64,000 nucleotides of DNA from Calditrichota bacterium (GTDB lineage Bacteria; Electryoneota; B3-LCP). Positions 2,572 to 58,919 of this stretch are shown in pieces. How positions within the stretch are numbered: position 1 is the stretch's first letter; each line of letters starts with the position of its first letter. The DNA lies in the NCBI GenBank assembly GCA_020051775.1, contig JAGVQJ010000069.1, positions 15,235 through 79,234 on the forward strand, read 5' to 3'. A program made the position numbers and the translations under genes. The notes under the pieces were generated by a model. That model did not search any database, was not told the origin of the DNA, and was given only the letters and a program-made list of their open reading frames with translations.

Positions 2572-2988
2572 CTATGTGCTGCCTGATACCAGGCTTTCCG
2601 GCTGCACCATGATTTTGACTCCCGTTTTGGCGCCGGCGTCGGAAAGGCGTTGCCTGAGCACGTTCAAATCGCTGGTTGCTCCTGCTGTATCAACCAAAGC
2701 CAGCATAACCTGAAATCCACCCATGATCCTTTCCACCCGATCTGCTATTCGGCAACCGGTGTCCTGCAAGCCTTGCGACAGTGCTTCGGCATTCGCGCGG
2801 TTATCCGGCGACAGACAGATTATCAAGAGCCGTTCCGGGCGCGATCCCGGTTTTGGCGCGTCGGTCTCCATCTGTGCCACCACCCGGCTGACGATCTGGT
2901 GCAACCGCTCGTAGGTGGCGGCTTCACCCAGCTCTTCCTGGGCGGTTTTCGCGATGGCGCGAATCTGATCTTCGGTGAGTTTGGTCAT
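2572..2988 (-). CDS. Hypothetical protein (138 aa), co-transcribed downstream of the BMC-T shell gene
   Basis: Complete ORF overlapping the stop of the BMC-T gene by 4 nt. No motif I can assign; it is not a recognisable BMC, EutN or GTPase fold by eye. Confidence 0.5.
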   Translation of the reverse strand: MTKLTEDQIRAIAKTAQEELGEAATYERLHQIVSRVVAQMETDAPKPGSRPERLLIICLSPDNRANAEALSQGLQDTGCRIADRVERIMGGFQVMLALVDTAGATSDLNVLRQRLSDAGAKTGVKIMVQPESLVSGST

Positions 2989-3554
2989 GATAGTATATTA
3001 AATATCTCTTCTCTCGGCTGCGGAATCACCACTTTGCGCACCAGCAGCCCCTGATCCAACGCGGCCTGAGCGCCCGCATCCACAGCGTTGCGTACGGCAG
3101 CCACGTCGCCGGTCAGTGTGACGAAGGCTTTGCCTCCGATGCCAATTCCCATCCGGATTTCCATCAAGGCAATCTGCGCCGTCTTGCAGGCGCGGTCGGC
3201 AGCGAGCACGGCAGAAGCCGCCGAAAACGTCTCGATGACGCCGATGGCGTTGACCGTCGGATTCCAGGAGGAGGCGATCAGGGCGGGGTAGACCTGCGGG
3301 TGGACGTTGGGGATGACGAAGTCGTCCACGCAGGCGATGGCGCCCACGCTTTTGCCCTCTTCCACGGAAGCGCGCACGGCGGCGGTGTCGCCGCGCACCA
3401 GAGCGATGTACTTGCCCGAGCAGATGGTCTTGGCGATAACCAGTTCCACCTGCGAGATCTTCAGCATGGCGTCCGCCGCTTCAATCCCCACGGCGATGGA
3501 GTTGAACTCGACCATGCCTAACGCGGACGAATGAGTAGTAGTGTTATTTGGCAT
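2985..3554 (-). CDS. Tandem BMC-domain (BMC-T) shell protein, PduT-like
   Basis: 189 aa with two BMC domains: ALGMVEFNSIAVGIEAADAMLKISQVELV...RGDTAAVRASVEEG and AIGVIETFSAASAVLAADRACKTAQIALMEIRMGIGIGGKAFVTLTGDVAAVRNAVDAG. Length and the GIGGK/GDV-AV motifs match my recollection of Salmonella PduT. The PduT cluster-binding Cys in GIGGKC is Ala here (GIGGKAF). Confidence 0.75.
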   Translation of the reverse strand: MPNNTTTHSSALGMVEFNSIAVGIEAADAMLKISQVELVIAKTICSGKYIALVRGDTAAVRASVEEGKSVGAIACVDDFVIPNVHPQVYPALIASSWNPTVNAIGVIETFSAASAVLAADRACKTAQIALMEIRMGIGIGGKAFVTLTGDVAAVRNAVDAGAQAALDQGLLVRKVVIPQPREEIFNILS

Positions 3555-3606
3555 TGGGGTGATGGGTACGTTACAGTTTGTTATTAAAGAATTTATGAAT
3601 TAGGAG

Positions 3607-4026
3607 TTATGAGTTATGAAAATTCGATGATTCCTTTTGTAATTTTTCCAGCCGTTTAATTCTATCTCTAAAATTAATGAGCATGGCGATAACCACACTC
3701 TGCAGAATTATTATCAGGAATACAAGTCGCTCCGTTTTAAGCATCTCAAATATTGAATAAATAGGTGGCCCGATAACTAGTAACAGAATAGCTATTCCGA
3801 TTATTGCTAAAATCAATAAAAATAATTTCTGGATCAGCCATTCCCATGCTTTAACTATTATTCCCGTCTTCGCTCCATTATCATAAAATGGCATTTTGGT
3901 AGGATCTAATAAAAAATCCTTGTCTTTAAAGAGTTTCTTATGAAGGGATGCCATGGATTCCTCCTGGACCGTCATTGCGTACTGAGTAATTTCTGCAGGG
4001 TCAGCGATATGCAACTCAACAGTCAA
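3607..4026 (-). CDS. Hypothetical small membrane protein (2 predicted TM helices), low-GC cassette gene 2
   Basis: 139 aa. Hydrophobic stretches LFLLILAIIGIAILLLVIGPPIY and LVFLIIILQSVVIAMLI. Markedly AT-rich compared with flanking genes. Confidence 0.5.
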   Translation of the reverse strand: MTVELHIADPAEITQYAMTVQEESMASLHKKLFKDKDFLLDPTKMPFYDNGAKTGIIVKAWEWLIQKLFLLILAIIGIAILLLVIGPPIYSIFEMLKTERLVFLIIILQSVVIAMLINFRDRIKRLEKLQKESSNFHNS

Positions 4027-4088
4027 TTTTGTCCTATTTAGGATTACGCTTTGCCAGGCAAACCTAACTGATTTATCACCTACAGCAT

Positions 4089-4799
4089 TTATTGAATTGG
4101 ATCTTTAAATACCTTGTAAATATTTTTGATAATCCAAAATACTTGAAGTGCCTCATTCGCTATATTTTCAAAATACCTTGTTTCAACACAATATCCAAGC
4201 ATATGTTTCTGCTTTTTTTCATCAAACATCCACCATTGTCCAGTCCATGCAGAAGAAGGATGAATAAAAATAGAACCATCCCTAAATATGCTCGAATATT
4301 TCTCACTCATATTGTACTTATATTCTTGTTGAGAATATTGAGTAAGAAGGCGGCAGAGTGTGCAAAGATTTAAATCTTTATTATTGTACTTGAATGTTTT
4401 ATACCAAGGATGAGAGCTAATTCTTCCCTCAGACTTTGAATGCATGAAGAATCTTTCTGATCGCACTTCCCTTTTATCTTGTTCGGACAGGATAAAAAGT
4501 AACGAAGCTAGATTGTCGAATATTACTCTAAGATGTATGTAAGCCGAGGACAGATTTACTAACTTTAAGCTCACATGAAACATAATGCTATGATTATAAT
4601 GCCATAAAAGATGACTCAGCAATGCACCAGAAAAATAGTTACTCGGCTCCAATCCATTTTGAAAATGCTCCTGGATATGATTTAATATTTCTTGGTGTTC
4701 ATCAATTTCACTCTCAAGTTTTCCAATAAGCTGGTTGAATCTTTCGTTGTCCGTAAATAAATAAGGCACTCTAGTTTTTATATCATTCCAATAATCCAT
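4089..4799 (-). CDS. Hypothetical cytoplasmic protein (236 aa), low-GC cassette gene 1
   Basis: Complete ORF, AT-rich, no signal peptide. Only a weak R-x6-H stretch (RSERFFMH) reminiscent of HEPN motifs; no family assigned. Confidence 0.45.
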   Translation of the reverse strand: MDYWNDIKTRVPYLFTDNERFNQLIGKLESEIDEHQEILNHIQEHFQNGLEPSNYFSGALLSHLLWHYNHSIMFHVSLKLVNLSSAYIHLRVIFDNLASLLFILSEQDKREVRSERFFMHSKSEGRISSHPWYKTFKYNNKDLNLCTLCRLLTQYSQQEYKYNMSEKYSSIFRDGSIFIHPSSAWTGQWWMFDEKKQKHMLGYCVETRYFENIANEALQVFWIIKNIYKVFKDPIQ

Positions 4800-9105: not shown

Positions 9106-9894
9106 TTATCCCATTCCGGAGCTATTTACCTTGGGGAAAGGAGGCATCGTGCGCTTGTACTGCTGGCTGTCAACCCTCTTCATGATGCGGTCAGTAATAT
9201 CCACTGAAAATCCCTCGGCCAGCAGCTCCTCGCGACTCATTTGCCTATCTATCCACCGGATTAAAAACCGATCGGCCTCAGAGTACGTGACTCCCAGCTC
9301 GTCTTCGTCGCATTGACCATCCCACAGATCGGCGCTGGGAGCTTTATGGCGGATCTCTTCAGGTACGCCGATATGTTCGGCTAATTGCCGCACTTGAGTC
9401 TTATACAAGTCTCCCAGGTGGTCGAAGGCGCAGCCTAAATCCCCATAGAGGGTTCCATAACCCATCAGAATTTCAGACTTATTGGAAGTGCCCATCACTA
9501 AGGCTCGTTCTTCTGCTGAGATTTGGTAAAGAACGATCATGCGGCAGCGAGCCATGATATTGCCCAACTGTAATCCGGTGATTGCGGGAAAGGCAGCGCT
9601 GATCGTTTCCACCATAGGAGTGATATCCACCAGCCGGGTAAAGATGTTCAAACCGGCAGCCACGGCCTGTGCATCCTTTAAACTGTTGGGGTGACTGATG
9701 CGATGAGGCATAAAAACACCGATAACATTTTCCCGACCCAACGCCTCGACCGCCAGGTAAGCTGAAACCGTCGAATCCAAACCGCCTGAAAGTCCCAGGA
9801 CCACTTTGGAAAAACCTTGCTTCCCAGTATACTCTCGGATGAATTGCACCAACTGTCGGTGTACGGGTTCGCATTTAATCTCCAGGAGTTTCAT
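9106..9894 (-). CDS. nadE: NH3-dependent NAD+ synthetase
   Basis: 262 aa. PP-loop GLSGGLDSTV; overall NadE-like length. Confidence 0.85.
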   Translation of the reverse strand: MKLLEIKCEPVHRQLVQFIREYTGKQGFSKVVLGLSGGLDSTVSAYLAVEALGRENVIGVFMPHRISHPNSLKDAQAVAAGLNIFTRLVDITPMVETISAAFPAITGLQLGNIMARCRMIVLYQISAEERALVMGTSNKSEILMGYGTLYGDLGCAFDHLGDLYKTQVRQLAEHIGVPEEIRHKAPSADLWDGQCDEDELGVTYSEADRFLIRWIDRQMSREELLAEGFSVDITDRIMKRVDSQQYKRTMPPFPKVNSSGMG

Positions 9895-11412: not shown

Positions 11413-12936
11413 TCAGTAGATTTTACGGAGTTCCGATCCTCGGTAATAATGCGCCAGTATTCGCTGATAATCCATTCCCTTAGTAGCCAAGGCCGCAGCG
11501 CCGATCTGACATAATCCCACTCCATGTCCCCAGCCTAAGCCGTGCAGCGAAATGCTTTTCCCATCATGTTCAATCCAGAAGGCTGAGCTGGGCAGATGCG
11601 TGGGGGATAAGGCTCTCCGTATGGCCAGTTCGGGAGTGAGTGATAAGCGTCCCAGGCTGCCGATGATCTCCAATTCGATCAAACGCCCGGAAGGGCCGCG
11701 TCGCAGCGGCTTAAATTGCGATATTTCGCCCAGTGTTATGCCGGTTTTTATCGCGATTATTTCGGAAAGTTCTCGTGCAGTAGCTTTTTCCTGCCAACGG
11801 TAAAGTTGGGATAGTTCCTGCAATCGCCCTGTCAAAGGAGCGTATCCGGGACTACAGCACGAGTCTTCCGGCAAGTTTCGTTGCTGAAATTCCCGGAAAG
11901 CGGTTTCTTCCGATAGATCAAGAGTCGGTGTTTCCGGCAGGTCGCGGAAATGCCCCAGATACGGTTCGTTGGCAAATGCCCAGACATTACCCGCCGGTTC
12001 CATAACGCCGCCGCAGGTTTTGGCGTACCGGGCGTCGCAGACGCGCCCTTGGTACATCAGAGCCACACCCCTTGTTTGGCTGGCGGCCTCTTGGGAAGCC
12101 GCACGAATACGTCCCAGGCCATAGTAGCATTGGCAATGATCGCCGTTGCAAATCGTATAGGGTTCACCGGGATGATGACTACCCCAGTTAGCCAGCAACC
12201 AGGATCGTGCCGCCACCACCTGGCTTTTCAAAAACTCCAAAGGTGAATCCGCCGGCATCTCAGACGAATTAACGGACGTCAGGTAGTCTTCGACTCCAAG
12301 GTCTACACCAGCACACAGTTGGCCATCGGTTCCTATCGCTACCCAAGCTGGAGGCGGCAATTCTAACACTTCGGTATGTTCCCAATGGAAGCCTTCCCCC
12401 ACTGGCGCTTCCGGCGCGATGATAGTTCCGGCGGCTTCGAGCGTGATCGGTAAGGCGACTTCAAATTCCCGGTCCGCAGTGACAATCGTAGCAGTTCCTG
12501 TCCCTTGACCTTCGGACAGTTCGATTATTTCTGCCTGCAAATCCGGCTGTGTTTCACGCAGGCGAGTCTTGAGCTCATGAAGGCTTGTCTCCCCATCAGC
12601 AGGTCTGGCTAAAAGCCGATAATCCCTAACCGCCCATTCGCCTGCGGTCGGATTCAATCCCACAGGCCAAAAACCGGTGGCCCACCCATGAGACTCCAGA
12701 GCTTGAATCAAAATTGAATCAAGCTCATTCTGGCTCGCGCTCCCTAGCCAGAGCCAGGTTTGTTTTTTAGCAGGCCGGCTTGTGCCGATCTTTAATTTGA
12801 TTTCACCGGTGGGTAGATTTTCGCGGGTATCAGCGGCTCCGATGACTGTAACGGGAGAGCCACAACGCAGTCGTATGGATTCCCGACCCCAGATCAGGGC
12901 GACTCTAAGTGATGGGGGATTCATCAGGAATGGCAA
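11413..12936 (-). CDS. SpoIID/LytB-domain protein
   Basis: 507 aa. ...TICNGDHCQCYYG and C-terminal HGLGWGHGVGLCQIGAAALATKGMDYQRILAHYY match SpoIID/LytB signatures. Confidence 0.75.
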   Translation of the reverse strand: MPFLMNPPSLRVALIWGRESIRLRCGSPVTVIGAADTRENLPTGEIKLKIGTSRPAKKQTWLWLGSASQNELDSILIQALESHGWATGFWPVGLNPTAGEWAVRDYRLLARPADGETSLHELKTRLRETQPDLQAEIIELSEGQGTGTATIVTADREFEVALPITLEAAGTIIAPEAPVGEGFHWEHTEVLELPPPAWVAIGTDGQLCAGVDLGVEDYLTSVNSSEMPADSPLEFLKSQVVAARSWLLANWGSHHPGEPYTICNGDHCQCYYGLGRIRAASQEAASQTRGVALMYQGRVCDARYAKTCGGVMEPAGNVWAFANEPYLGHFRDLPETPTLDLSEETAFREFQQRNLPEDSCCSPGYAPLTGRLQELSQLYRWQEKATARELSEIIAIKTGITLGEISQFKPLRRGPSGRLIELEIIGSLGRLSLTPELAIRRALSPTHLPSSAFWIEHDGKSISLHGLGWGHGVGLCQIGAAALATKGMDYQRILAHYYRGSELRKIY

Positions 12937-14034: not shown

Positions 14035-16032
14035 TTAGGTTTTTACAGATTCCAATTCTCGAATGCGACGGCGCGCCTCATGGGCCGACAACGAATTAGG
14101 ATAATCTACCAGAATTCTTTCGTATTCGTTAATAGCGCCTCGCGTGTCTCCCAGGTCTTGTTCTCGGATTTGACCTGACAATAATAGGAATTCCGGGGCG
14201 CGTAGACTTTTCGGGAAACGATTTAGGGCGTCCTGCAAAGTGGAGATAGCGAGCGTGGGGCGAGCGGATTCACGATACAACCTAGCCAGTTTCATAACGG
14301 CTAATTCGGTCAATTCCGGCGCCTTCGATAGCTGCAAAACGGCCGTGAAAAGAGATTCTGCGCGGGCGCTTTCGCCCAGTTTTTTCTCCAGGTCGGCTCG
14401 TGCCAGATTGATTGCGGCGCTGGAATCACCTGAACTCGCGGCAAGCAAGCCCGCCAGATCGAGCGCATCATTGGCTAACTTTCCTTCAGGATTGCCGGCA
14501 GATGCCTGGCCAAGCCGCTCCATAGCCTGACTCACCTGCCCCAGACACAAATCTATCTGGGCGGCGCTGACCAAAGCCCTGGCTTTGACGTCGGGATCAT
14601 TCGCATAAACTCCCTGAGAGGCCTCCAGATAAATATTCCGCGCCTTTTCCAAATTTCGTTCGACCAGGTAGGTATCGCCGATCAATAGACTTATCTGCCC
14701 TCCGCCGCGCAGTCGAGGATTGTTCTGCAAGCCATTACTTAAGAGTTCGCGGGCAGCGGCAGGTTGTCGCAAATGATCCACTTTGAGCCGAGCCTGTAAA
14801 AGTAAGGCATCATGTTCCTGGGTCGTCCGCAGTATTTTATTGGAAGTCAATTTCGAATAGACAGAGTCCGCCGCCTGGTAGATCCCCAGCGCCTCCAAAG
14901 CCTTGGCTCGTGCCAGTATAGAGCGGGGTGATCCAGACATGGCGGGATGGGAAGCGGCCATATCGTCCAACACCTGCAAGCTCAGGCCGGGTTGTGATTC
15001 TAAAAGTAGAGTCTCGGCAAACGCGAGCATGGATTCGCCGGATCCGCCGCCTAATTGATCAGCCTCGCGCGTCTGTTCGTAGGCCTGTTCCCACTGCCGA
15101 TTGCGAAAGTAGAATTGAGCTAAAATTTGCGTAACATACAGATGTATGGATTCGCGTTTCAGGGCGTTTTTCAAGGTGGTTTCGACTTGATCTTTGGTTT
15201 CTCTGTCCTCCGGTAATGATAAAATTTGGCGCTGAATGGCCTCCGCCTGTCGCGGTTGCGACTCCATCAGACTCAACAGCTCAGTTACAGCTTTGTCGGA
15301 TTGTCCGCGCTGCGCCCAGAAGCTCGCGAGCGAAGAGGCCAACAAGGCTGGATCGCCCGTAGCCTGCCGGGCTTTGCTGACCATATCCTGCAGCGCATCT
15401 GCGTAGCGGCACTCAATCATGGCCGACATCAACCGAAAGTAGCAGTTGGAACTGGGGTGGGGAAGGGCGTAAAGGTCGTCCCAGCGCTTGAATGCTTCTT
15501 CCCTCCGATCCAAACGCCCGGCCAAGCGTCCGCCGTCAACAATTAACATGGCGAGGCGTTCCCGTTCCACGATAGACATGCCATTCAAGGAAGTTTTGGC
15601 CTGCATTTCCCGCCGCAGAGAATCAACCGTTAGCAGGCCGGATTGAAAGTTATCTGTGGCTACCCAACCACGCAACATGCCCTCATAGAACGGATCGTAT
15701 TCCGGGTAGTGGGAAAAAAGTTGCTGATAGACTGGCAGGGCTTTATCCATTTCACCGCGATTCTCGAACATCATGGCATTGCGTTGCAAGCGCATGGCTT
15801 CCTCATCCAGAGGCTTATGAAGCTCGAGAGGCATGGAAGGGGGGAAATCCCAGAACTGAGCGAATGACAAATGACTAATGACAAATGACAAAAGGCCTGC
15901 GATAAAAGCGATAGTAATCCGATTCCGGGCAAGCCGGAATGACTCGTTCTGTGTTGTTTCCGAAAGGGGTATTCCCCGTTTCCGGAATCGGTTCGGAAAT
16001 AGGTAGCATGACACCAATTTATTTCTGTTCAC
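14035..16032 (-). CDS. TPR-repeat protein with N-terminal signal/anchor
   Basis: 665 aa, repetitive helical A/L-rich repeats. The hydrophobic N-terminus is encoded by a tandem aatgaca heptamer DNA repeat. Confidence 0.7.
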   Translation of the reverse strand: MNRNKLVSCYLFPNRFRKRGIPLSETTQNESFRLARNRITIAFIAGLLSFVISHLSFAQFWDFPPSMPLELHKPLDEEAMRLQRNAMMFENRGEMDKALPVYQQLFSHYPEYDPFYEGMLRGWVATDNFQSGLLTVDSLRREMQAKTSLNGMSIVERERLAMLIVDGGRLAGRLDRREEAFKRWDDLYALPHPSSNCYFRLMSAMIECRYADALQDMVSKARQATGDPALLASSLASFWAQRGQSDKAVTELLSLMESQPRQAEAIQRQILSLPEDRETKDQVETTLKNALKRESIHLYVTQILAQFYFRNRQWEQAYEQTREADQLGGGSGESMLAFAETLLLESQPGLSLQVLDDMAASHPAMSGSPRSILARAKALEALGIYQAADSVYSKLTSNKILRTTQEHDALLLQARLKVDHLRQPAAARELLSNGLQNNPRLRGGGQISLLIGDTYLVERNLEKARNIYLEASQGVYANDPDVKARALVSAAQIDLCLGQVSQAMERLGQASAGNPEGKLANDALDLAGLLAASSGDSSAAINLARADLEKKLGESARAESLFTAVLQLSKAPELTELAVMKLARLYRESARPTLAISTLQDALNRFPKSLRAPEFLLLSGQIREQDLGDTRGAINEYERILVDYPNSLSAHEARRRIRELESVKT

Positions 16033-19000
16033 GGGCTAAAGCCTCGAAATAATCGCGAATCAATTGTTGATAATCCTTGGTGTAACCTTCTTTGAGCGCT
16101 TCCAGGAGACGTTGCCGGGCGAGATCCGGGCCGATATTACGGTCAGCCTCGCGCGGCGCGGGATTGAACAGGTTCCCCTCCGCTGTGCGGGAGATACGTT
16201 CTTTTTTATACTCGCGTTCTCGTACTGAGCGTTGAGCATCTAAAAGTCGCGTTAAAATTTTTTCCTGGCGTTTCAGGATGCGTTCATCCACCTGGCGTTC
16301 TTTTAGCGCATCCGCCACCTCTTGCATCTCCTTACCCAACTCGCCCAGACGTCCCATTGTTTGCTGCAATTCCTGATTGGCCTGGTTCATCTGATCCAGT
16401 TGCCGCGCCAAGGCTTCCTGTTCAGCCGCCAAACGTCCCATGGCCGCGGCCTGTTCCTGCGTCATGCCGCCTGGATTTCCCGGTCCTGGAATATGGGACA
16501 TAGTGCCTTGATTGATCTGCCCTTGCTGCCCAGCCATTTTGGAAAGTTGCTCCATCATTTCGGAAAAGCCGGTGGAGGAGGAGGAGCTGGACATCTGGCT
16601 TAAACTGTTGCCGATCTCCATGACGGCGCGATTCAGGCCGCCCATTGCCCATTGTTGCTGGTGCTGCACCGATTGTGGGTTGCGTGCGGTATATCCCTGC
16701 AGCGCTTGATCCATGCCTTTGAAGGCCTGATCAAGGGCCGCGCCAATCTGCGGCGTGATGAAAAAACTCTTCTGCGATTGCTTGAAAAGTTCAGCGGAGC
16801 TCTGTTCCAGGAATTTTTTCAATTCTTGCTGTTCCTGCGCTTGCGCCCGGAATCGTGGGCTGGCTTTGTCCATAGTATTGGACGTGTCCAGCAAAGATTC
16901 TTGCTGGTAGGAAAGCTCCAACAGGTCGTGAGCGATTTTCTTCAAAGCGTCGGCTAGCTCCTTCTTCGCCGCTCCCGTCATCTGATCTTTGGCTTCTTTC
17001 ATCTTCTGTGAAAGCTGCGCCAAACCACTCTGTAGCTTCGAACCTTTCTGCTGTGCTTGCTGTTTAGAGCCTTGCTGCATGTCTTGCGACATCTGTTCCA
17101 TGGTCTCGGGAAACTGATTTTCAGCCATCAAAGAGTCAGCCTGTTTCATAACCTCATCCGGATTATGGGGCGACTCTTTCAACATTTCCTTGGCTTTATT
17201 GAACTCCTGCTCGAACGCCTGCATCTCCTTTTGCAATTCGGCTTCTGCTCGGGCTTGCTCGGGATGAGGACCATTTTTTTCTAAATTATCGTTGATTTCC
17301 TGCTGTTTTTGCAGCAACTCTTCAGCTCGCTTTGCCAATTCGTCCAGCTTCATTTCCAATTGAAGCTGCTTTAAAATATTCATGGTCTTTTCGATCTTGG
17401 CCAACATCTGTTCTTGATTGAGGCTGAAATCTTCCACAGCACGACGCAACGCTTCCGGATCTTGTTTTTGCAGCGCTTCCTGCAACTTCTGCATGGCCGA
17501 CATTAATTCCGGCGTCATCACGTCCGACAGCAACTTTTGCAATTCCTGATACTTCTGTAGAGTCTCATCGGAGAGCGTGCGACTCTCTTCCATGCGCTGG
17601 ATCATTTCCTGCGCGCTCTTACTCATCTCCTCGACTTGGCGGGCTACCTCTTCCTGTTTTTTGAGCATCTCCTCGACTTTTTTCCGCTCTTCCCAGGGGA
17701 GGTTGGGATTCTTCTTCAATTCCTCTTGAAGTTTATCCAGCTCCTGTTTCAAATGTTTGGATTTTTCCAGCGCTTCCTGAGCGCTTTCCACCTGCTGCCC
17801 TTGACCCTCATCAATACGCGCGAAGATCTCCTCCAGGGAGGGGAATCGTAGACGCTGGAGCGGTGATAGTGCGAGTTTAGGGCCGGAAATCTGATCGTTA
17901 TCCTGGGCTTCCAATCGGTACAGGATTTCATCGCCCGGCAGCAGGGGCAATCCGGTTAAGTCCCAGAGGTGATCCACGAGAAAGCTGCCGCCACCCATAG
18001 CCTCGAAGCTCAAATTCGTCCAATTAAATTTATTGTCCCGAGGGCTGCTGTCGGCTGATCCGTTTTTGATGATTTCATATCCCAATCGCACTCGCGTGAT
18101 GGCAAAATCATCCTGCGCCTGTCCTTTAATCGGAATCAGCATGGACTCATTGATCTCCGCGTCGCCTGGTGGATAAATAATTTCGATGAGCGGCGGTTCA
18201 TCCTCAATGGTCCAGAGAGTGTAATCCACCGGAGTGGCTCCGGCAATACCCTCTTGGTCTTCAAGGATGAGGTTATAATGTCCGCTCTCCATCAGGGTAA
18301 ATTGCGCATTCGCTTGAGAACCCTGCACTTGCATGGGCAGACTGTCCGGTTGATCTGGGAGCGTATCTTTGACCAATCTCAGCTGTGCCTTGGCCAGGTC
18401 GCGATCGGCCTCGAGCGTGATGCTCACGCGACTCCCCTTCAATGCAGATACGTCGCCGCGTTTTTCAATGGCGGACCCAGGTGGCTGGCCGCTATAAGCT
18501 GGAGGCGTCCACTTTACTTGCAACTCCTTGATGAAGGGACGCGCCTTGACTCGCACTTCTACCGTATCGCTGGTAATATTGTTCTTAAAAGCCCAGATAG
18601 AGAGATGGTCCTGTGGATTTTCAATACTCTGCCGGGCTGTTCCGGTGCCGTCGAATTTCAATTGAAAATCGGAGGTTTCACCGTTCAATTCCCGAACGCG
18701 CAGAGTGATCCAGGCTGGTAAAGTCCCTGGCATGTTGCCCGATAATTGACCGCGCACTAAAACTTCGAAAGGTTCGCCGCGGATAGTCAACTTCGGCACC
18801 TCTTCCAACTTCAAGGTATATGGCATGACTGGCCCGAAATCCCGCCCCGGCTGCCATAACCGTGCGAATGCCGAACCAAAGCTACCCCAAGTCACCAGCA
18901 TGGCCACAACCCAACAACCCGCTTCGATCAAGACGACCCGGCGAAGAGCACGCAGCTTTCGCCGATCCAGCACCCGTTCGTAGGACGCTCCCTGCAATTG

Positions 19001-19405
19001 CTGACCGATGGCTGATAATGACAACTCCGCCAACTCCGGGGAAGCTTGGTCCGTTAGGCGATTTTCCCACACTTGTATCGCGTTCAAGAGCCGGTCGTTG
19101 ACCTCGGGCAGGGATCTACCCCAGCGTAAGGCCAGTATTTCCTCGTGAATTGGGCGAAACAGATGCTGCAACACAGGCAGGAGAATCCACACACCGGTCA
19201 GACCTGTTACCGTTGTGAGCCAAGCCCATAAAACGATCCCACGCGCCGCACTTGAGAGCGGGAATACCAGCTCTACACAAACGACCAGTAGCAGCACAGC
19301 CCCGGCAACTCCGGCAGTTCGCCACGTGCCTTCCTGTACCTGCAGAGTAACCAGCTTGCGCCGCAACTCCGCCAGCCGGTTCTTTATTTCATCATTCCAA
19401 GACAT
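16019..19405 (-). CDS. Giant membrane-anchored coiled-coil protein (DUF4175-like)
   Basis: 1128 aa. Two N-terminal TM helices, a central region with beta-rich segments, and a C-terminal ~500 aa of Q/E/K-rich coiled coil. Family assignment is from memory of Bat-like operons, not verified. Confidence 0.55.
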   Translation of the reverse strand: MSWNDEIKNRLAELRRKLVTLQVQEGTWRTAGVAGAVLLLVVCVELVFPLSSAARGIVLWAWLTTVTGLTGVWILLPVLQHLFRPIHEEILALRWGRSLPEVNDRLLNAIQVWENRLTDQASPELAELSLSAIGQQLQGASYERVLDRRKLRALRRVVLIEAGCWVVAMLVTWGSFGSAFARLWQPGRDFGPVMPYTLKLEEVPKLTIRGEPFEVLVRGQLSGNMPGTLPAWITLRVRELNGETSDFQLKFDGTGTARQSIENPQDHLSIWAFKNNITSDTVEVRVKARPFIKELQVKWTPPAYSGQPPGSAIEKRGDVSALKGSRVSITLEADRDLAKAQLRLVKDTLPDQPDSLPMQVQGSQANAQFTLMESGHYNLILEDQEGIAGATPVDYTLWTIEDEPPLIEIIYPPGDAEINESMLIPIKGQAQDDFAITRVRLGYEIIKNGSADSSPRDNKFNWTNLSFEAMGGGSFLVDHLWDLTGLPLLPGDEILYRLEAQDNDQISGPKLALSPLQRLRFPSLEEIFARIDEGQGQQVESAQEALEKSKHLKQELDKLQEELKKNPNLPWEERKKVEEMLKKQEEVARQVEEMSKSAQEMIQRMEESRTLSDETLQKYQELQKLLSDVMTPELMSAMQKLQEALQKQDPEALRRAVEDFSLNQEQMLAKIEKTMNILKQLQLEMKLDELAKRAEELLQKQQEINDNLEKNGPHPEQARAEAELQKEMQAFEQEFNKAKEMLKESPHNPDEVMKQADSLMAENQFPETMEQMSQDMQQGSKQQAQQKGSKLQSGLAQLSQKMKEAKDQMTGAAKKELADALKKIAHDLLELSYQQESLLDTSNTMDKASPRFRAQAQEQQELKKFLEQSSAELFKQSQKSFFITPQIGAALDQAFKGMDQALQGYTARNPQSVQHQQQWAMGGLNRAVMEIGNSLSQMSSSSSSTGFSEMMEQLSKMAGQQGQINQGTMSHIPGPGNPGGMTQEQAAAMGRLAAEQEALARQLDQMNQANQELQQTMGRLGELGKEMQEVADALKERQVDERILKRQEKILTRLLDAQRSVREREYKKERISRTAEGNLFNPAPREADRNIGPDLARQRLLEALKEGYTKDYQQLIRDYFEALAREQK

Positions 19406-20658: not shown

Positions 20659-21051
20659 GGGTTGTTGCTCCTAATGGCCGGTGGCGATCCTAAGTATAAT
20701 TTAGCCTTTATCCGTTGTTAATGTTAAACATCCCCCTTATGATCCCCCAAATTAAGATGATTGCAAACCAAATGCAAGAGATTTTTATGAAATTTTATAA
20801 TAGTGATCCAAACTTATTGTTTTTGATGGTTGAAGGATGAATTTTACCGGGGGTTAAAGACAATCTCATGATACGACTGGATTTTTGGGTTCTTAGTAAA
20901 AAGTTCGGACTCTTTGACCTGCTGATTTTATTACTAGGGTTTTTCATGGCTGGGATTTGTGAATAGATTTTGTAATAGATTACACTTGAAATTTGTTCGA
21001 ATTTTTCATATATTTTGTTTGGCCCATACGCAAACATTTGAGGGAGGCATA

Positions 21052-23397
21052 ATGTCCGCTTTTTATTCCTACGATCCCAGGTCACCGGATAGCTACACTT
21101 CGCAGTGGTCCCGCTATCTGCAGCAAAAGTCCGTTATCCAAGATCTTGAACACACCATGCAAGATCAAACGGATCAAATCCGGGATTCTTTGGGTATTGT
21201 AGCAAGTACTCTGCAAGATGGATTCTATCAAATTACTGAATGCCTGAATCAATTGAACTGGGGTTTGACCATGGTGATAGAAAGGCAGCGCATAACTAAC
21301 ATCCTAGCGGAAAATATCGCGCTGCTCCTCCGCATTCCCGATGCCCAAAAAAAGCGACAATATTACCTTGAACAGGGCCTTAAGTTTTTAAAAAACGCCA
21401 CGCTCGATCCGGATCTGTATCAGGACGCACTGGAAAAACTGATGGAGGCCGAAAAGTTGGAAAAGACGGATTATTTTGTTTTGCACCGGATCGGCCTGAT
21501 TTATTTATATAGTTCCGAGCATCTTGACGTATCCAAAGCTGAGGAGTATTTCAGGCGAGCAGCCAAGTACTCCGTTGTTGAGTCAGATCCCCAGGCAGTT
21601 CGAATTGCGAATATTTTGATAGGTGATATTCGAGGACAATTTAGAAACCAGACAACTCCTGCAGAAATCATTAAACTGATGGCGGCGGAATCCTTCTTAC
21701 ATACCGGAATTGCTTGTTACGTTCAGGGGAAATTCGAAGAAGCGGCGGAATTAGCCGCGAAAGCTTTCTTGCTCGCGCCGGAAATGCTGATTGCGGGGTT
21801 TGCGCGAGCCAAATCGCTAGCAGCCGGGGGACACGATAAGGAGTCAGCAACAGTCGTACGGGATCTAGTTACGCGTGACAGGAACTACTCTATTGCGGCT
21901 GCCCTTGACGATGATCTCAGGTCTTGCCAGGCTGTACGGGAAATGTTACACCAGTTACGCGACGAGGCGCTCAACCGGATATCGCAGATCCTGAAGGATT
22001 ATAAAGCCAAAATGATTCGAGGAAGCCTAGCCACGCCGGTTTTAGCGGAAATTGAGCAGCTAATTAAAAGGGGAACGTATTTGGATTCGATGAAGGCTAT
22101 GGATGAAATGGCCAAAAGAAGGATTTGGCGAATAAATGTAATACCACCGAGATTTGTGGAAAAATTAACAATGAAGGATTTTGGAGGTGATGTGCTGGAT
22201 GTTGCTTTCAGTCCGGATGGAACACTTCTGGCCATTAGTGATATTCATGGAAAGGTATATATAAAGGGCCTAGACCAAAATCAGCTAAGTATGAATCGTG
22301 ATCTTGGTTTTGAAAACAGAATAATGAGCCTAAAGACTCCTTCACATAATAAGATCCTCGCAGGATTATCTGAAAACAATCATATTATCATATGGGACTT
22401 GAAGACAATGAGTGAAATTGCGACATTATCAGGAAATAGAAGCCATATCAGTTGTTTTGATATTAGTAGGGACGGTAACATTGTAATTGCCGGTTACAAT
22501 GACGGATCAATGATACTCTGGGATATAAATAAGAAAGATCAAGTATTTAATTCTAAGGGTCACAACAACTCAGTTTCAACTTTAGAACTCAATTGGGATT
22601 GCACTTTACTCGCATCCTGTGAAGCTGGTGAGGTACACCTTCGGCGGGTAGAAACTATGGAACCAATAAATAATTTTTGCTTAGAGTCAGGGAAACATTT
22701 TCACACTGTTACCTTTAATCCTGATGGATCAAAATTAGCTTGCGGTTCTGTTAACGAAATCGCCATATTGGATACTGTCACCGGCAAAACATTATCGCGC
22801 ATCACTGCTAACAAAGCTCCGCATTATTTATCATGCTTTAGTCCGGATGGTGAATATCTGGTTTGTACGCAAGGTGATTGGTCGGATCCAGAAATTACTA
22901 TTATTAATGTAATTAATGGGAAATCTGTTGCCAAACTAAAACGCTTTGAAGGAAAAGTTAAGTGTGTTAAATTTAGCCCAAATGGATTACTCCTAGCCTG
23001 TGTTACCGATAAAAGAATTGTACTTTGGATTAGACAATCAGGTGATGTTTCAGCTAAGCCAATCGAAATTGAATGTTCACATAGTGTAGAAAAATTTATT
23101 GATTATGAAAAGGAAAGCCTAGCGGGATTAGAATTACATAAAAAAACCAAGGTGGCAGCCAGGCAAAAGGAAATTGAACGCAAAAAAGGTATGGAGGAAC
23201 AGCGCTCATTGCTGGAAAAAGAGAAGAAAATAAAGAATCTACTGGAACTTGCGTCACAGGCGGAGAAATACCAAAACAAAAAATGGTTTGGTAAAAACTT
23301 TTCAAAAACACTGGAATTGTATTTAGAAGCGGCTAAACTGGGCTCTGATGAAGCTAAAGTAGCAGTGAACCGTTTGGGATCAAAGATGAAGAAATAA
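21052..23397 (+). CDS. Large TPR-like helical + WD40 beta-propeller + coiled-coil/Sel1-like protein, low-GC (probably horizontally acquired)
   Basis: Track ORF starts at 20959. ATG at 21052 has a GGAGG RBS 7 nt upstream. WD40-type repeats (DVAFSPDGTLLAISDIHGKVY, IIWDLKT, MILWDINKK). C-terminal KEIERKKGMEEQRSLLEKEKK coiled coil and Sel1-like ...LELYLEAAKLGSDEAKVAVNRLG. No P-loop. Confidence 0.7.
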   Translation: MSAFYSYDPRSPDSYTSQWSRYLQQKSVIQDLEHTMQDQTDQIRDSLGIVASTLQDGFYQITECLNQLNWGLTMVIERQRITNILAENIALLLRIPDAQKKRQYYLEQGLKFLKNATLDPDLYQDALEKLMEAEKLEKTDYFVLHRIGLIYLYSSEHLDVSKAEEYFRRAAKYSVVESDPQAVRIANILIGDIRGQFRNQTTPAEIIKLMAAESFLHTGIACYVQGKFEEAAELAAKAFLLAPEMLIAGFARAKSLAAGGHDKESATVVRDLVTRDRNYSIAAALDDDLRSCQAVREMLHQLRDEALNRISQILKDYKAKMIRGSLATPVLAEIEQLIKRGTYLDSMKAMDEMAKRRIWRINVIPPRFVEKLTMKDFGGDVLDVAFSPDGTLLAISDIHGKVYIKGLDQNQLSMNRDLGFENRIMSLKTPSHNKILAGLSENNHIIIWDLKTMSEIATLSGNRSHISCFDISRDGNIVIAGYNDGSMILWDINKKDQVFNSKGHNNSVSTLELNWDCTLLASCEAGEVHLRRVETMEPINNFCLESGKHFHTVTFNPDGSKLACGSVNEIAILDTVTGKTLSRITANKAPHYLSCFSPDGEYLVCTQGDWSDPEITIINVINGKSVAKLKRFEGKVKCVKFSPNGLLLACVTDKRIVLWIRQSGDVSAKPIEIECSHSVEKFIDYEKESLAGLELHKKTKVAARQKEIERKKGMEEQRSLLEKEKKIKNLLELASQAEKYQNKKWFGKNFSKTLELYLEAAKLGSDEAKVAVNRLGSKMKK

Positions 23398-23403
23398 TTG
23401 TTA

Positions 23404-53142: not shown

Positions 53143-53231
53143 GTACCTGTTATTTAATTTTAAGAGATTATATTCATCAGTATGAGGTAAAAATGGTTGC
53201 AGATGAAACCATGTGAACTATATCGCATAAT

Positions 53232-53249
53232 ATGTTAGTAATATAACAT
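53232..53249. promoter_or_regulatory. Perfect 18-bp palindrome ATGTTA-gtaata-TAACAT, candidate operator ~90 bp upstream of hdrC
   Basis: Read directly in the AT-rich divergent intergenic region 53143-53607. Confidence 0.5.
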
Positions 53250-53346
53250 GTACTGCCGATTTTGTCAAGCATTTTCTTATTTTTTTTCAATAGGCTTAAA
53301 GTGCCGTATTGGAGCTATTCGAGAGAAGGCACTAATTGTTCATACT

Positions 53347-53373
53347 ATAACATTATAATATTAATTATGTTAT
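53347..53373. promoter_or_regulatory. Inverted repeat ATAACAT-N13-ATGTTAT (same half-site, opposite arrangement)
   Basis: Read directly in the same intergenic region. Confidence 0.4.
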
Positions 53374-53450
53374 GAAATATACAGGAATCATTAAATAATT
53401 AACAATTGTTTATATAAGAAAACACAGAGGATCTTCCCTGCTTGCAAATA

Positions 53451-53468
53451 ATGTTAATATAATAACAT
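53451..53468. promoter_or_regulatory. Second perfect palindrome ATGTTA-atataa-TAACAT, ~140 bp upstream of the UbiA-family gene
   Basis: Same 6-6-6 architecture as the site at 53232. Confidence 0.5.
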
Positions 53469-53607
53469 TATCTATTTGATAATCACTATCGAACGTCGGA
53501 AAATTTTACTGGATTTCGCTCTTCACACTCTGGAACGAGCAATTTTTTATTGTATTTCCTTTGACAAATACTTATATTTAGGTACTAAGCAAAGAGGGAA
53601 TAGGGAT

Positions 53608-57521: not shown

Positions 57522-57715
57522 AAGTCGTCTACGGGGCGGGGTGAAAGACCCCACCGGCGGTGAAAGCCCGCGAGTCTGCTACTTCCTGGTCACCCTTTAT
57601 AATGGGCGATGGGGGATCAATACAATCATCATTTTCCCCTTTTGTAAAGGATCTGGCAGACAGAGCCGGTGTAATTCCGGCGCCGACGGTTATAGTCCGG
57701 ATGAGAGCAGACGGC
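57522..57715 (+). promoter_or_regulatory. FMN riboswitch (RFN element) aptamer
   Basis: CGGGGCGGGGTGAAAGACCCCACCGGCGGTGAAAGCCCGCGAG ... GCCGGTGTAATTCCGGCGCCGACGGTTATAGTCCGGATGAGAGCAGACGG match conserved RFN blocks. Sits upstream of ribD. Confidence 0.8.
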
Positions 57716-57751
57716 CATGGGACAGTTACGTTCCCACGATGGATAATTACG

Positions 57752-57791: not shown

Positions 57792-58919
57792 GTGACGGAA
57801 GACGTTCGCTTTATGAAAATGGCGCTCCGATTGGCGCGACGCGGCTTGGGAACCACCAGCCCCAATCCTCGTGTCGGAGCGGTTTTAATGCGCGGTGGCA
57901 AGATCCTTTCGCGCGGTTTTCATCGCGCCTTCGGCGAGCCTCATGCCGAAGTGGATGCCTTGAGCAAGCTGCCTCTCCGGGCTGCCGAAGGAGCCACGCT
58001 GTACGTCAACCTGGAACCTTGCTGTCATCATGGTAAGACCCCGCCCTGCACCGAGGCGATCACCAGAGCGGGTGTTCAACGTGTTGTGTACGGCCTCGCC
58101 GATCCCAATCCTCAGGTCAATAAACAGGGATTGGATCAGTTGACCAAAGCGGGGGTGAAGGTTCACGGGCCTGTTTTGGAATCGGACTGTCGAGAGATCA
58201 ATCGCGGTTATTTGAAACATCGTCAGACCGGGCTTCCCTGGGTGACCCTTAAATGGGCTCAGAGTCTGGACGGGCGCATCGCAACGTTCACCGGAGATTC
58301 ACGCTGGATTAGCGGTCCGGAGAGCTTGAAATTAGCCCACGTCTTGCGCGCCGAACACGACGCTGTGCTGGCGGGGATCAACACCGTTTTAACCGATGAT
58401 CCGCAACTGACCGTGCGTCATATCCGCGGCCATCACCCCACTCGCGTGATCCTGGATTCGGCCTTACGTTTCCCGACCAAAGCGGCCATGCTGACTGATG
58501 GGAAAGCCCGCATCCTGATAGCCACAAGTCAAAGTGCCCCCGAAGATAAGATTCGAGCGCTGAAGATTCTCGGCGCGGAAGTATTGACTGTTCCCGGCGA
58601 AAGAGGACAACTGGATTTGAACGCTTTGTTGAAGGAACTGGGCCAACGTGGGATTTTGTATCTTCTGGTGGAGGGTGGCTCAAAAGTAATCGCTTCTTTC
58701 ATTCAGCAGGGGCTTTTCGACGAAATCGTGTGTATCATAGCGCCAAGTTTAATCGGCGCTGACGGCATTGCCAGCACCGGGGCTTTTGCCGTCGCGCGAA
58801 TGGATAATGTGGTGAAATTGCAAACCGTCCAGAGGAAAGCCTTTGGTCGAGATATAGTAGTCTGGCTAAGACCTCAATTGAGAACTACCAACGACCAACG
58901 ACTATGTTCACCGGCCTGA
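57792..58919 (+). CDS. ribD: Bifunctional riboflavin biosynthesis protein RibD (deaminase/reductase)
   Basis: 375 aa. HAEVDAL and PCCHHGKTPPC deaminase zinc motifs; C-terminal RibD reductase domain. GTG start at 57792 or ATG at 57813. Confidence 0.9.
   Translation: MTEDVRFMKMALRLARRGLGTTSPNPRVGAVLMRGGKILSRGFHRAFGEPHAEVDALSKLPLRAAEGATLYVNLEPCCHHGKTPPCTEAITRAGVQRVVYGLADPNPQVNKQGLDQLTKAGVKVHGPVLESDCREINRGYLKHRQTGLPWVTLKWAQSLDGRIATFTGDSRWISGPESLKLAHVLRAEHDAVLAGINTVLTDDPQLTVRHIRGHHPTRVILDSALRFPTKAAMLTDGKARILIATSQSAPEDKIRALKILGAEVLTVPGERGQLDLNALLKELGQRGILYLLVEGGSKVIASFIQQGLFDEIVCIIAPSLIGADGIASTGAFAVARMDNVVKLQTVQRKAFGRDIVVWLRPQLRTTNDQRLCSPA

Follow-up and report, generated by a model that had tools for sequence, protein, structure and literature searches.

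A 64,000-nucleotide stretch of contig JAGVQJ010000069.1 from a Calditrichota bacterium (assembly GCA_020051775.1, forward strand 15,235 to 79,234), hereafter called the window, carries on its plus strand a gene for a protein of 781 amino acids (aa), which is the subject of this report and is called the target gene. Unless another locus is named, coordinates are positions in the window. The gene is real, intact and stand-alone, and its base composition looks foreign. Its product is cytoplasmic, non-enzymatic and built of interaction modules, namely a helical head, a WD40 propeller, a long helix and a small Sel1-like cap. The head and the cap mark an undescribed and phylogenetically patchy family, here named the head-cap family, the parts of which (TPR, WD40 and Sel1) are of known kinds. 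It is tentatively proposed, at a probability of about 0.4, that the target was acquired horizontally and acts as an oligomeric adaptor or sensor whose recognition cassette can be swapped.

Architecture of the protein and the head-cap family

The target gene is contained in a long plus-strand open reading frame (ORF, 20959–23397), which is set within a run of minus-strand genes. Its start is ATG 21052, from which exactly 781 aa and a stop codon are read, the same product length as had been claimed in an earlier description of the window made from its letters alone (the sequence-only reading). As read directly, GAGGGAGG at 21040–21047 is the ribosome-binding site (RBS) ahead of this ATG and is rated strong, and further upstream a sigma-70-like promoter (20986–21014, plus strand, TTGAAA-17-TATATT) agrees at 10 of 12 positions, as a match to the consensus only. 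At the other end the gene is convergent with ispB, with 6 nt between the two stop codons. An identical protein has already been recorded (P0001, from one 82-kb contig).

The full-length AlphaFold2 model of the protein (predicted local distance difference test, pLDDT, 84.8; predicted template modelling score, pTM, 0.58) is of high confidence for every domain. It consists of helices alone, with no strands, at aa 1–355, of about 28 strands in seven blades at aa 357–677 (pLDDT mostly around 90), of one uninterrupted helix at aa 679–742 and of a helix hairpin at aa 751–780. The long helix is presumably a coiled-coil stalk, and the two elongated helical segments of the protein are, in the model, candidate oligomerisation elements. 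The propeller, at aa ~370–680, scores 86 bits with Pfam WD40 (PF00400), for which the cutoff is 27, and is recognised by Beta-prop_THOC3 too (E 8.9e-33). For the head, the best Pfam TPR model was TPR_2, with one repeat at 17.9 bits, below its cutoff of 27 (E 0.003), and NCBIfam, PADLOC and PHROGs gave no informative match; structurally, aa ~100–355 form a helix-turn-helix solenoid which resembles solved TPR proteins and has the TPR fold. Pfam Sel1 (PF08238) does not match the 119-aa tail even at E ≤ 10. The profile built from 25 homologous tails (A6) does match the Sel1-like proteins EsiB (4bwr, 1.9e-9) and HcpB (1klx, 2.8e-5) as well as several chains named Sel1 repeat protein, which places the tail among the Sel1-like repeat (SLR) proteins at the profile level, and the homologues P0009 and P0012 have precomputed PF08238 matches. 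Neither an NTPase nor any other enzyme family was found in the 781 aa by Pfam, NCBIfam or PADLOC, and the absence of a NACHT, NB-ARC or AAA_16 P-loop domain in the same scans sets the protein apart from STAND NTPase sensors. It has no signal peptide and no transmembrane (TM) segment.

Much of this had been anticipated in the sequence-only reading: the all-helical N-terminal domain, the propeller of about 300 aa (aa 356–678) and the lack of an NTPase or catalytic motif are all confirmed, and the N-terminal domain did not turn out to belong to a known enzyme family in Pfam, NCBIfam or PADLOC. Its Sel1-like C-terminus stands by the family tail profile and fails by Pfam on the sequence itself, being a single repeat. 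What it overlooked is that the head and the Sel1 cap are one framework with the WD40 part as an insert.

The family was delimited by an HMMER scan of 1.84 billion representatives with aa 1–375, which gave 803 clusters at E ≤ 1e-3 and 305 at E ≤ 1e-30, and phmmer comparisons with other members reached E values down to 1e-101. The head match almost always begins within about 100 residues of the N-terminus, total lengths are about 400–1200 aa, and many head homologues are without any precomputed Pfam domain; the family itself is absent from Pfam, NCBIfam, PADLOC and PHROGs. Near-invariant residues of the head are N83, L92-L93-R94-x-P96, K100, R102, G109, N115, A133, D140, H145, G148, Y151, Y166-F167, K172 and E177, and the motifs of the head run LLRIPDxQKxRQ (an invariant loop, aa 92–103)...GLKFLKNA...DYFVLHRIGxIY...KAExYFxxAAKY. 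The target keeps all invariant and near-invariant residues and is thus a member of the family. Some of these residues occupy TPR structural positions; the conserved polar ones suggest, from their conservation, a binding site. Ahead of the motifs come an N-terminal peptide, which is conserved, and a segment of coiled-coil or amphipathic character whose length varies and is shortest in the target. The profile of this N-terminal segment resembles apolipoprotein A-IV (3e-6); homology to apolipoprotein was rejected and the match is read as similarity of amphipathic or coiled-coil repeats.

The tail (aa 679–781) was present in 31 of 246 fetched proteins, all 31 of which bear the head. It mostly finishes within 10 residues of the C-terminus, and the cap aligns with 30 other members. 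The gap between head and tail is about 0 residues in P0132, P0014 and P0133, about 300 where a WD40 propeller is present, and about 650–750 for PQQ-type propellers. By BLAST, the best relatives of the WD40 part of the target are, at 26–32% identity, WD40s of other multidomain proteins, some of which are labelled Ser/Thr kinases in their source, and WD40 proteins named as BTAD regulators and NB-ARC proteins occur lower in the match lists. Since the propeller is no nearer to the WD40s of head-bearing homologues than to those of other multidomain proteins, the head and the helix/Sel1 cap, which are co-inherited, form the framework of the family and the propeller is an insert. The region between the two constant parts is a variable cassette.

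Other modules that follow the head are WD40 or PQQ propellers, further TPRs, TerB, an FtsK-like region, FtsK-gamma and C-type-lectin-like domains (Lcl_C, Fib_succ_major and FGE-sulfatase), while members without the cap bear C-terminal TM hairpins, C-type-lectin-like domains, TerB or FtsK-gamma. When 166 sampled members whose tails measure 60 aa or more were scanned crudely for hydropathy, 75 showed between one and three TM helices near the C-terminus. As a separate observation, P0055, P0056 and P0067 carry the Fib_succ_major-type lectin-like domain as a fusion to the head, and the member in locus L034 is flanked on both sides (9131–9745 and 11862–12809) by Fib_succ_major-like proteins without signal peptides, one of which has a BRCT-like N-terminus.

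Base composition and origin of the gene

The mean guanine-plus-cytosine content (GC) of the window is 0.511. The target gene has a GC of 0.418 and a third-position GC (GC3) of 0.399, against 0.515 ± 0.040 and 0.585 ± 0.068 for the other 46 ORFs, which corresponds to z values of −2.5 and −2.7; among the 47 it ranks second lowest in GC, after the short ORF 4089–4799 alone. The deviation is unevenly spread. The values of GC3 are 0.50–0.51 for the head (aa 1–355), 0.29 (0.291) for the WD40 part and 0.38 for the tail, and in 300-nt windows over the region GC ranges from 0.34 to 0.54, with 21550–22000 host-like. The codon-usage distance to the pooled window is 0.205 for the target against 0.132 ± 0.036 (z +2.0), a value exceeded by three genes alone, each of fewer than 240 codons; when the gene is divided, the head gives a distance of 0.166, and WD40 plus tail one of 0.268. 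Moreover, the tetranucleotide distance is 0.365 against 0.219 ± 0.037 in sliding 2346-nt windows, none of which is as high, so that the target gene is the most tetranucleotide-deviant part of the 64 kb, owing chiefly to its WD40 part.

The sequence-only reading had described a region of ~2.7 kb, promoter included, with 35–45% GC on a ~57% GC background. The background was set too high; the low GC of the gene as a whole and of its upstream region (the 393-bp spacer has a GC of 0.354) is correct. Because codon usage and tetranucleotides, two comparisons that the same reading had named as checks, both deviate, the anomaly is real with the corrected background. Besides this spacer, four more intergenic regions of the window are below 0.40 GC.

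The short ORF 4089–4799 (minus strand, 236 aa) deserves mention in its own right. With a GC of 0.329 and a GC3 of 0.308 it is a stronger low-GC case than the target; it has the largest codon-usage distance in the window, an AT-rich upstream spacer (0.36) and no Pfam match. Positions 3555–4088 were noted alongside it, and the region 3555–4799 is adjoined by a BMC-domain gene (2985–3554).

The host is related to candidate division LCP-89. Its IspB shares 67% identity with the protein of candidate division LCP-89 bacterium B3_LCP and 73–85% with those of closer relatives. In four loci of relatives (L051, L052, L053 and L055) a block from ~31400 to 23404 is collinear with the window and ends exactly at the ispB stop codon. 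Past ispB, PHO4/PhoU are found in L052 and L053 and a small DUF2283 pair in L055, and L051 ends; the target gene is thus absent after ispB in L052, L053 and L055, where other DNA lies and no empty site is seen. On a 3459-bp contig of JGI 3300075153, the gene that comes after the one for IspB (82% identical) is convergent, cut by the contig and 778 codons long; it is like the target gene in size and orientation and may or may not be its orthologue. Among 5.8 billion protein clusters no full-length homologue above 34% identity was found, the next best after the identical P0001 being at 34%, and a metagenome scan for a close orthologue returned an unrelated WD40 only, with the limit that exact 8-mers were needed and an orthologue of ~80% identity could escape.

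Two small features of the relatives may be recorded here. Directly after ispB, L055 (2719–3253, minus strand; a relative at 78%) encodes a DUF2283 protein and a 106-aa protein which together look like a toxin–antitoxin pair and suggest that the site is a hotspot for cargo. An IS200-type Y1 transposase gene lies between tyrS and ispB in L051 (6406–6849) and L055 (1138–1581), whose IspB proteins are 85% and 78% identical, and is absent in the window.

The heads nearest to that of the target (46–52% identity) belong to Sericytochromatia and Acidobacteriota. Low GC is a trait of the whole family: its genes lie below their flanks at 23 of 26 loci, by 6.4 points on average (mean −6.4; Wilcoxon p 2e-5), and in three of four metagenome contexts too, and tail GC3 is slightly lower than head GC3 in 22 of 31 loci (p 0.001). 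The horizontal acquisition of the target gene, which had been proposed in the sequence-only reading, is therefore well supported, since the composition is atypical in GC3, codon usage and tetranucleotides, synteny with four relatives breaks at the gene, no homologue exceeds 34% identity, the nearest heads are found in other phyla and the family shows a GC deficit. By atypical GC3, codon usage and oligonucleotide composition the gene belongs with horizontally acquired islets; by mobility signatures it does not, as direct repeats, tRNA, integrase and transposase are all missing at the locus. Taken together with the propeller being an insert, the step in GC3 from 0.50 to 0.29 suggests that the WD40 cassette is the younger part of the gene.

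Proposed role and rival explanations

According to the proposed reading, the target would be a cytoplasmic oligomeric adaptor or sensor. Its constant head, in which a set of polar residues is invariant (N83, R94, K100, R102, N115, D140, H145, K172 and E177), with the cap, may bind one conserved partner or self-assemble, the latter by way of the N-terminal coiled coil, the 64-aa stalk and TPR/Sel1 stacking, and the WD40 propeller would be an exchangeable module which recognises a specific protein target. Across the family, the cassette would confer specificity in the case of propellers, lectin-like domains and FtsK-gamma, and membrane action in the case of TM hairpins. As a biological setting, inter-genomic conflict would be the likeliest, that is, the sensing or exclusion of invaders, and this is the weakest step of the argument.

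In favour of such a setting were counted the set of modules described in PMC7159879, the patchiness, the AT-richness and an occasional linkage to mobile elements. The 42 genome loci belong to about ten phyla (Bacteroidota, Acidobacteriota, Verrucomicrobiota, Sericytochromatia, Latescibacterota, Gemmatimonadota, Planctomycetota, Patescibacteria, Chlorobi-type and Bacillota). Transposases adjoin P0012 and P0072, tyrosine recombinases lie near three Flavobacteriales loci, a serine recombinase adjoins a further family locus, and one member is carried by a phage-like IMG/VR contig near a head-maturation protease. P0009 lies inside a xanthine-dehydrogenase-type operon, in the same orientation, between the FAD/2Fe-2S and molybdopterin subunits (L043 8001–10139 / L044 5735–7873), with a GC of 0.36 against 0.42 in its flanks; the small ORFs upstream of P0009 and those upstream of the target gene were compared and are unrelated. 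The family genes are solitary: all-against-all clustering of 474 ORFs from the 42 genome loci revealed no conserved operon partner, and neither did four annotated metagenome contexts.

A number of results weigh against the proposed reading. PADLOC-DB 2.0 gave zero matches to the target protein, which by this collection is no member of a known anti-phage defence system, and only weak matches to eight homologues, mostly over coiled-coil stretches. Since the protein lacks an effector domain, defence would have to work through a partner, and no partner gene co-occurs with the family. Censuses of 140 neighbours with Pfam and PADLOC showed no recurrent neighbour family, and the count of PADLOC matches among neighbours stands without a background comparison. 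The family had no match in PLSDB plasmids nor in INPHARED phages (50,697 phage records). At the target locus the neighbours are housekeeping genes (HU, DUF4159, DUF4175, ispB, tyrS and smpB), with no recombinase among them, no meaningful repeats flank the gene, and the 64 kb contain no tRNA gene. In addition, the geometry between the domains is uncertain in the model (pTM 0.58). A defence or exclusion function, though plausible, is accordingly rated as rather unlikely, and the link to anti-phage systems drawn in the sequence-only reading was not borne out, given the lack of a PADLOC match, the housekeeping neighbours and the lack of a conserved partner gene. It also seems unlikely, if conceivable, that the head-cap proteins form a class of their own, new and free of NTPases, in which a single gene serves for surveillance or exclusion. 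In such a class, assembly or the binding of a universal host target would fall to the constant head, alone or together with the Sel1 cap, recognition or effector cassettes (WD40 or PQQ propellers, C-type-lectin-like domains, FtsK-gamma, TM hairpins) would be swapped by recombination, and the target would be a recent chimera with a low-GC WD40 cassette.

The best-surviving alternative, itself rather unlikely, is an accessory cytoplasmic scaffold with no part in conflict, whose head docks on membrane, nucleoid or division machinery and whose tails localise it or recruit cargo, the WD40 version organising a host complex. The chromosomal position of the target gene among core genes, the lack of matches to defence models, the FtsK-gamma or FtsK-like fusions of some members, the likeness of the N-terminal region to amphipathic apolipoprotein-type repeats and the TM helices at the ends of about 45% of sampled members, possibly mere anchors, would all suit it. 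It is less easily reconciled with the patchy distribution and the close relatives without an orthologue, with a family-wide GC deficit and a fast turnover of tails that are atypical of housekeeping scaffolds, and with the insertion of one member within a xanthine-dehydrogenase-type operon.

It is quite improbable that the gene is a recently acquired passenger without a role in the host, a chimera of older head and newer WD40 cassette drifting to loss. Its apparent singleton status in its lineage, the sharp GC3 split within the gene (0.50 versus 0.29) and a variable locus at which relatives hold other cargo could be explained in this way, but its 2346-nt ORF is unbroken and preceded by a strong RBS, AlphaFold2 confidence is high across the domains, and every invariant family residue has been kept. 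Very improbable, too, is a low GC that is not foreign but a by-product of Asn/Lys/Ile-rich repeats, of low expression or of chance. GC at second codon positions (GC2) is only mildly low (0.355 versus 0.402, z about −1), the tail is Lys/Glu-rich, and four other intergenic regions and one other gene of the window are AT-rich; against this, the anomaly peaks at synonymous third positions (GC3 0.399; WD40 0.29), no tetranucleotide window in the 64 kb deviates more than the gene, which also coincides with the synteny break, so that the GC3, codon-usage and tetranucleotide results have already largely refuted the explanation. A remnant of a prophage or integrative element, to which the IMG/VR member near a head-maturation protease, the recombinases near three Flavobacteriales loci and the transposases beside P0012 and P0072 might point, is scarcely credible where no phage, integrase, tRNA or repeat signature surrounds the target gene and 50,697 phage records hold no match.

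If the adaptor or sensor reading is true, the target is an entry point to a mobile, modular family of at least 300 robust clusters at 50% identity (803 at E ≤ 1e-3), and a constant TPR-like head that is combined with exchangeable cassettes (propeller, lectin or TM) and lacks an NTPase would differ in design from STAND-type sensors. The GC3 step inside the gene is also a clean candidate case of domain-cassette exchange. If the target is a lineage-specific scaffold only, it is an ordinary accessory gene.

Features of the window and comparison with known systems

The features of the target locus are collected in the table below.

Features of the target gene and its upstream region (positions in the window)
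Feature	Position	Strand	Remarks
AT-rich intergenic region	20659–21051		separates the target gene from the divergent HU-like gene; 393 bp, GC 0.354
Complete coding sequence, 781 aa and stop	21052–23397	+	from the ORF list and direct reading
Conserved family head, aa 1–355	21052–22116	+	N-terminal peptide, short coiled-coil/amphipathic segment, LLRIPDxQKxRQ loop, TPR-like solenoid
Seven-bladed WD40 beta-propeller, aa 356–678	22117–23085	+	variable cassette inserted between head and cap; GC lowest within the gene
Single 64-residue Lys/Glu-rich alpha-helix, aa 679–742	23086–23277	+	AlphaFold2; homologous to tails of other members
C-terminal Sel1-like single-repeat cap, aa 743–781 and stop	23278–23397	+	motif KKWFxKNFxxxLxLYxxAAxLGSxxA

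Upstream, on the opposite strand, lie genes for HU-like, DUF4159, DUF4175, TPR, Rce1-like, SpoIID, acyltransferase, NAD synthase and Lgt proteins; a vWA-MoxR/Bat operon had been considered there and was rejected, the genes from Lgt to DUF4159 being those just named. Downstream, in convergent orientation, are ispB, tyrS and smpB and then a gene for a protein with a type IX secretion system (T9SS) tail. No non-coding RNA or Rfam element was found around the target gene.

Further away, a flavin mononucleotide (FMN) riboswitch (RF00050; score 103 bits, gathering score 66) is present at 57523–57716 on the plus strand, upstream of the ORF 57792–58919. The intergenic region 53143–53475, between divergent genes, has a GC of 0.27. 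The DUF4175 gene (16019–19405, minus strand) encodes 1128 aa with a long Gln/Glu/Lys-rich coiled-coil region; it has a strongly negative AT skew over 16–18 kb and, in tetranucleotide content, is one of the more deviant parts of the window.

Among known systems, the resemblance to CpoB (YbgF) and TolB of the Tol-Pal system is one of parts only. There, a coiled coil and TPR belong to one partner and a beta-propeller to the other, and both are separate periplasmic proteins with signal peptides, whereas the target is a single cytoplasmic protein; its match to TolB is weak (E 2.4e-4, 20 bits against a cutoff of 343 bits). The generic TPR adaptors, among them Rap/RRNPP receptors, LGN/Pins, NASP and MamA, have no counterpart of the LLRIPDxQKxRQ loop, the N-terminal peptide or the coiled-coil segment. 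At the sequence level the head was not found to belong to any of them, and Rap-type proteins score against it no better than designed consensus TPRs. With the SLR proteins HcpB and EsiB the match is that of the cap profile, and the cap motif AxxLYxxAAxLGSxxA fits the SLR consensus; unlike them, the cap is one repeat placed after a 64-aa helix, in a protein without a signal peptide, and is not significant by Pfam Sel1.

It has been reported that TPR, beta-propeller, coiled coil, FGS lectin and inactive FtsK are modules of prokaryotic conflict systems, and that, in vWA-MoxR and related systems, superstructure-forming modules take the place of the effector (Kaur et al. 2020, PMC7159879). The same modules (TPR, beta-propeller, coiled coil, FGS/C-type-lectin and FtsK-like) are used in the variable region of the head-cap family, but its genes are solitary, without a linked vWA, MoxR or other partner. 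As far as checked, the head is not among the domains named in that paper, and no description of the head-[cassette]-stalk-cap framework was found in it.

The STAND sensors that bear WD40/TPR arrays at the C-terminus (APAF-1, bacterial Avs/NLR-like proteins) and the WD40-tailed Ser/Thr kinases share with the target a repeat propeller as the presumed protein-recognition module, and STAND-type sensors share with the family a modular build and a patchy distribution. The target differs from them in having no P-loop NTPase, kinase or effector domain, its constant part being instead a TPR-like head together with a Sel1 cap.

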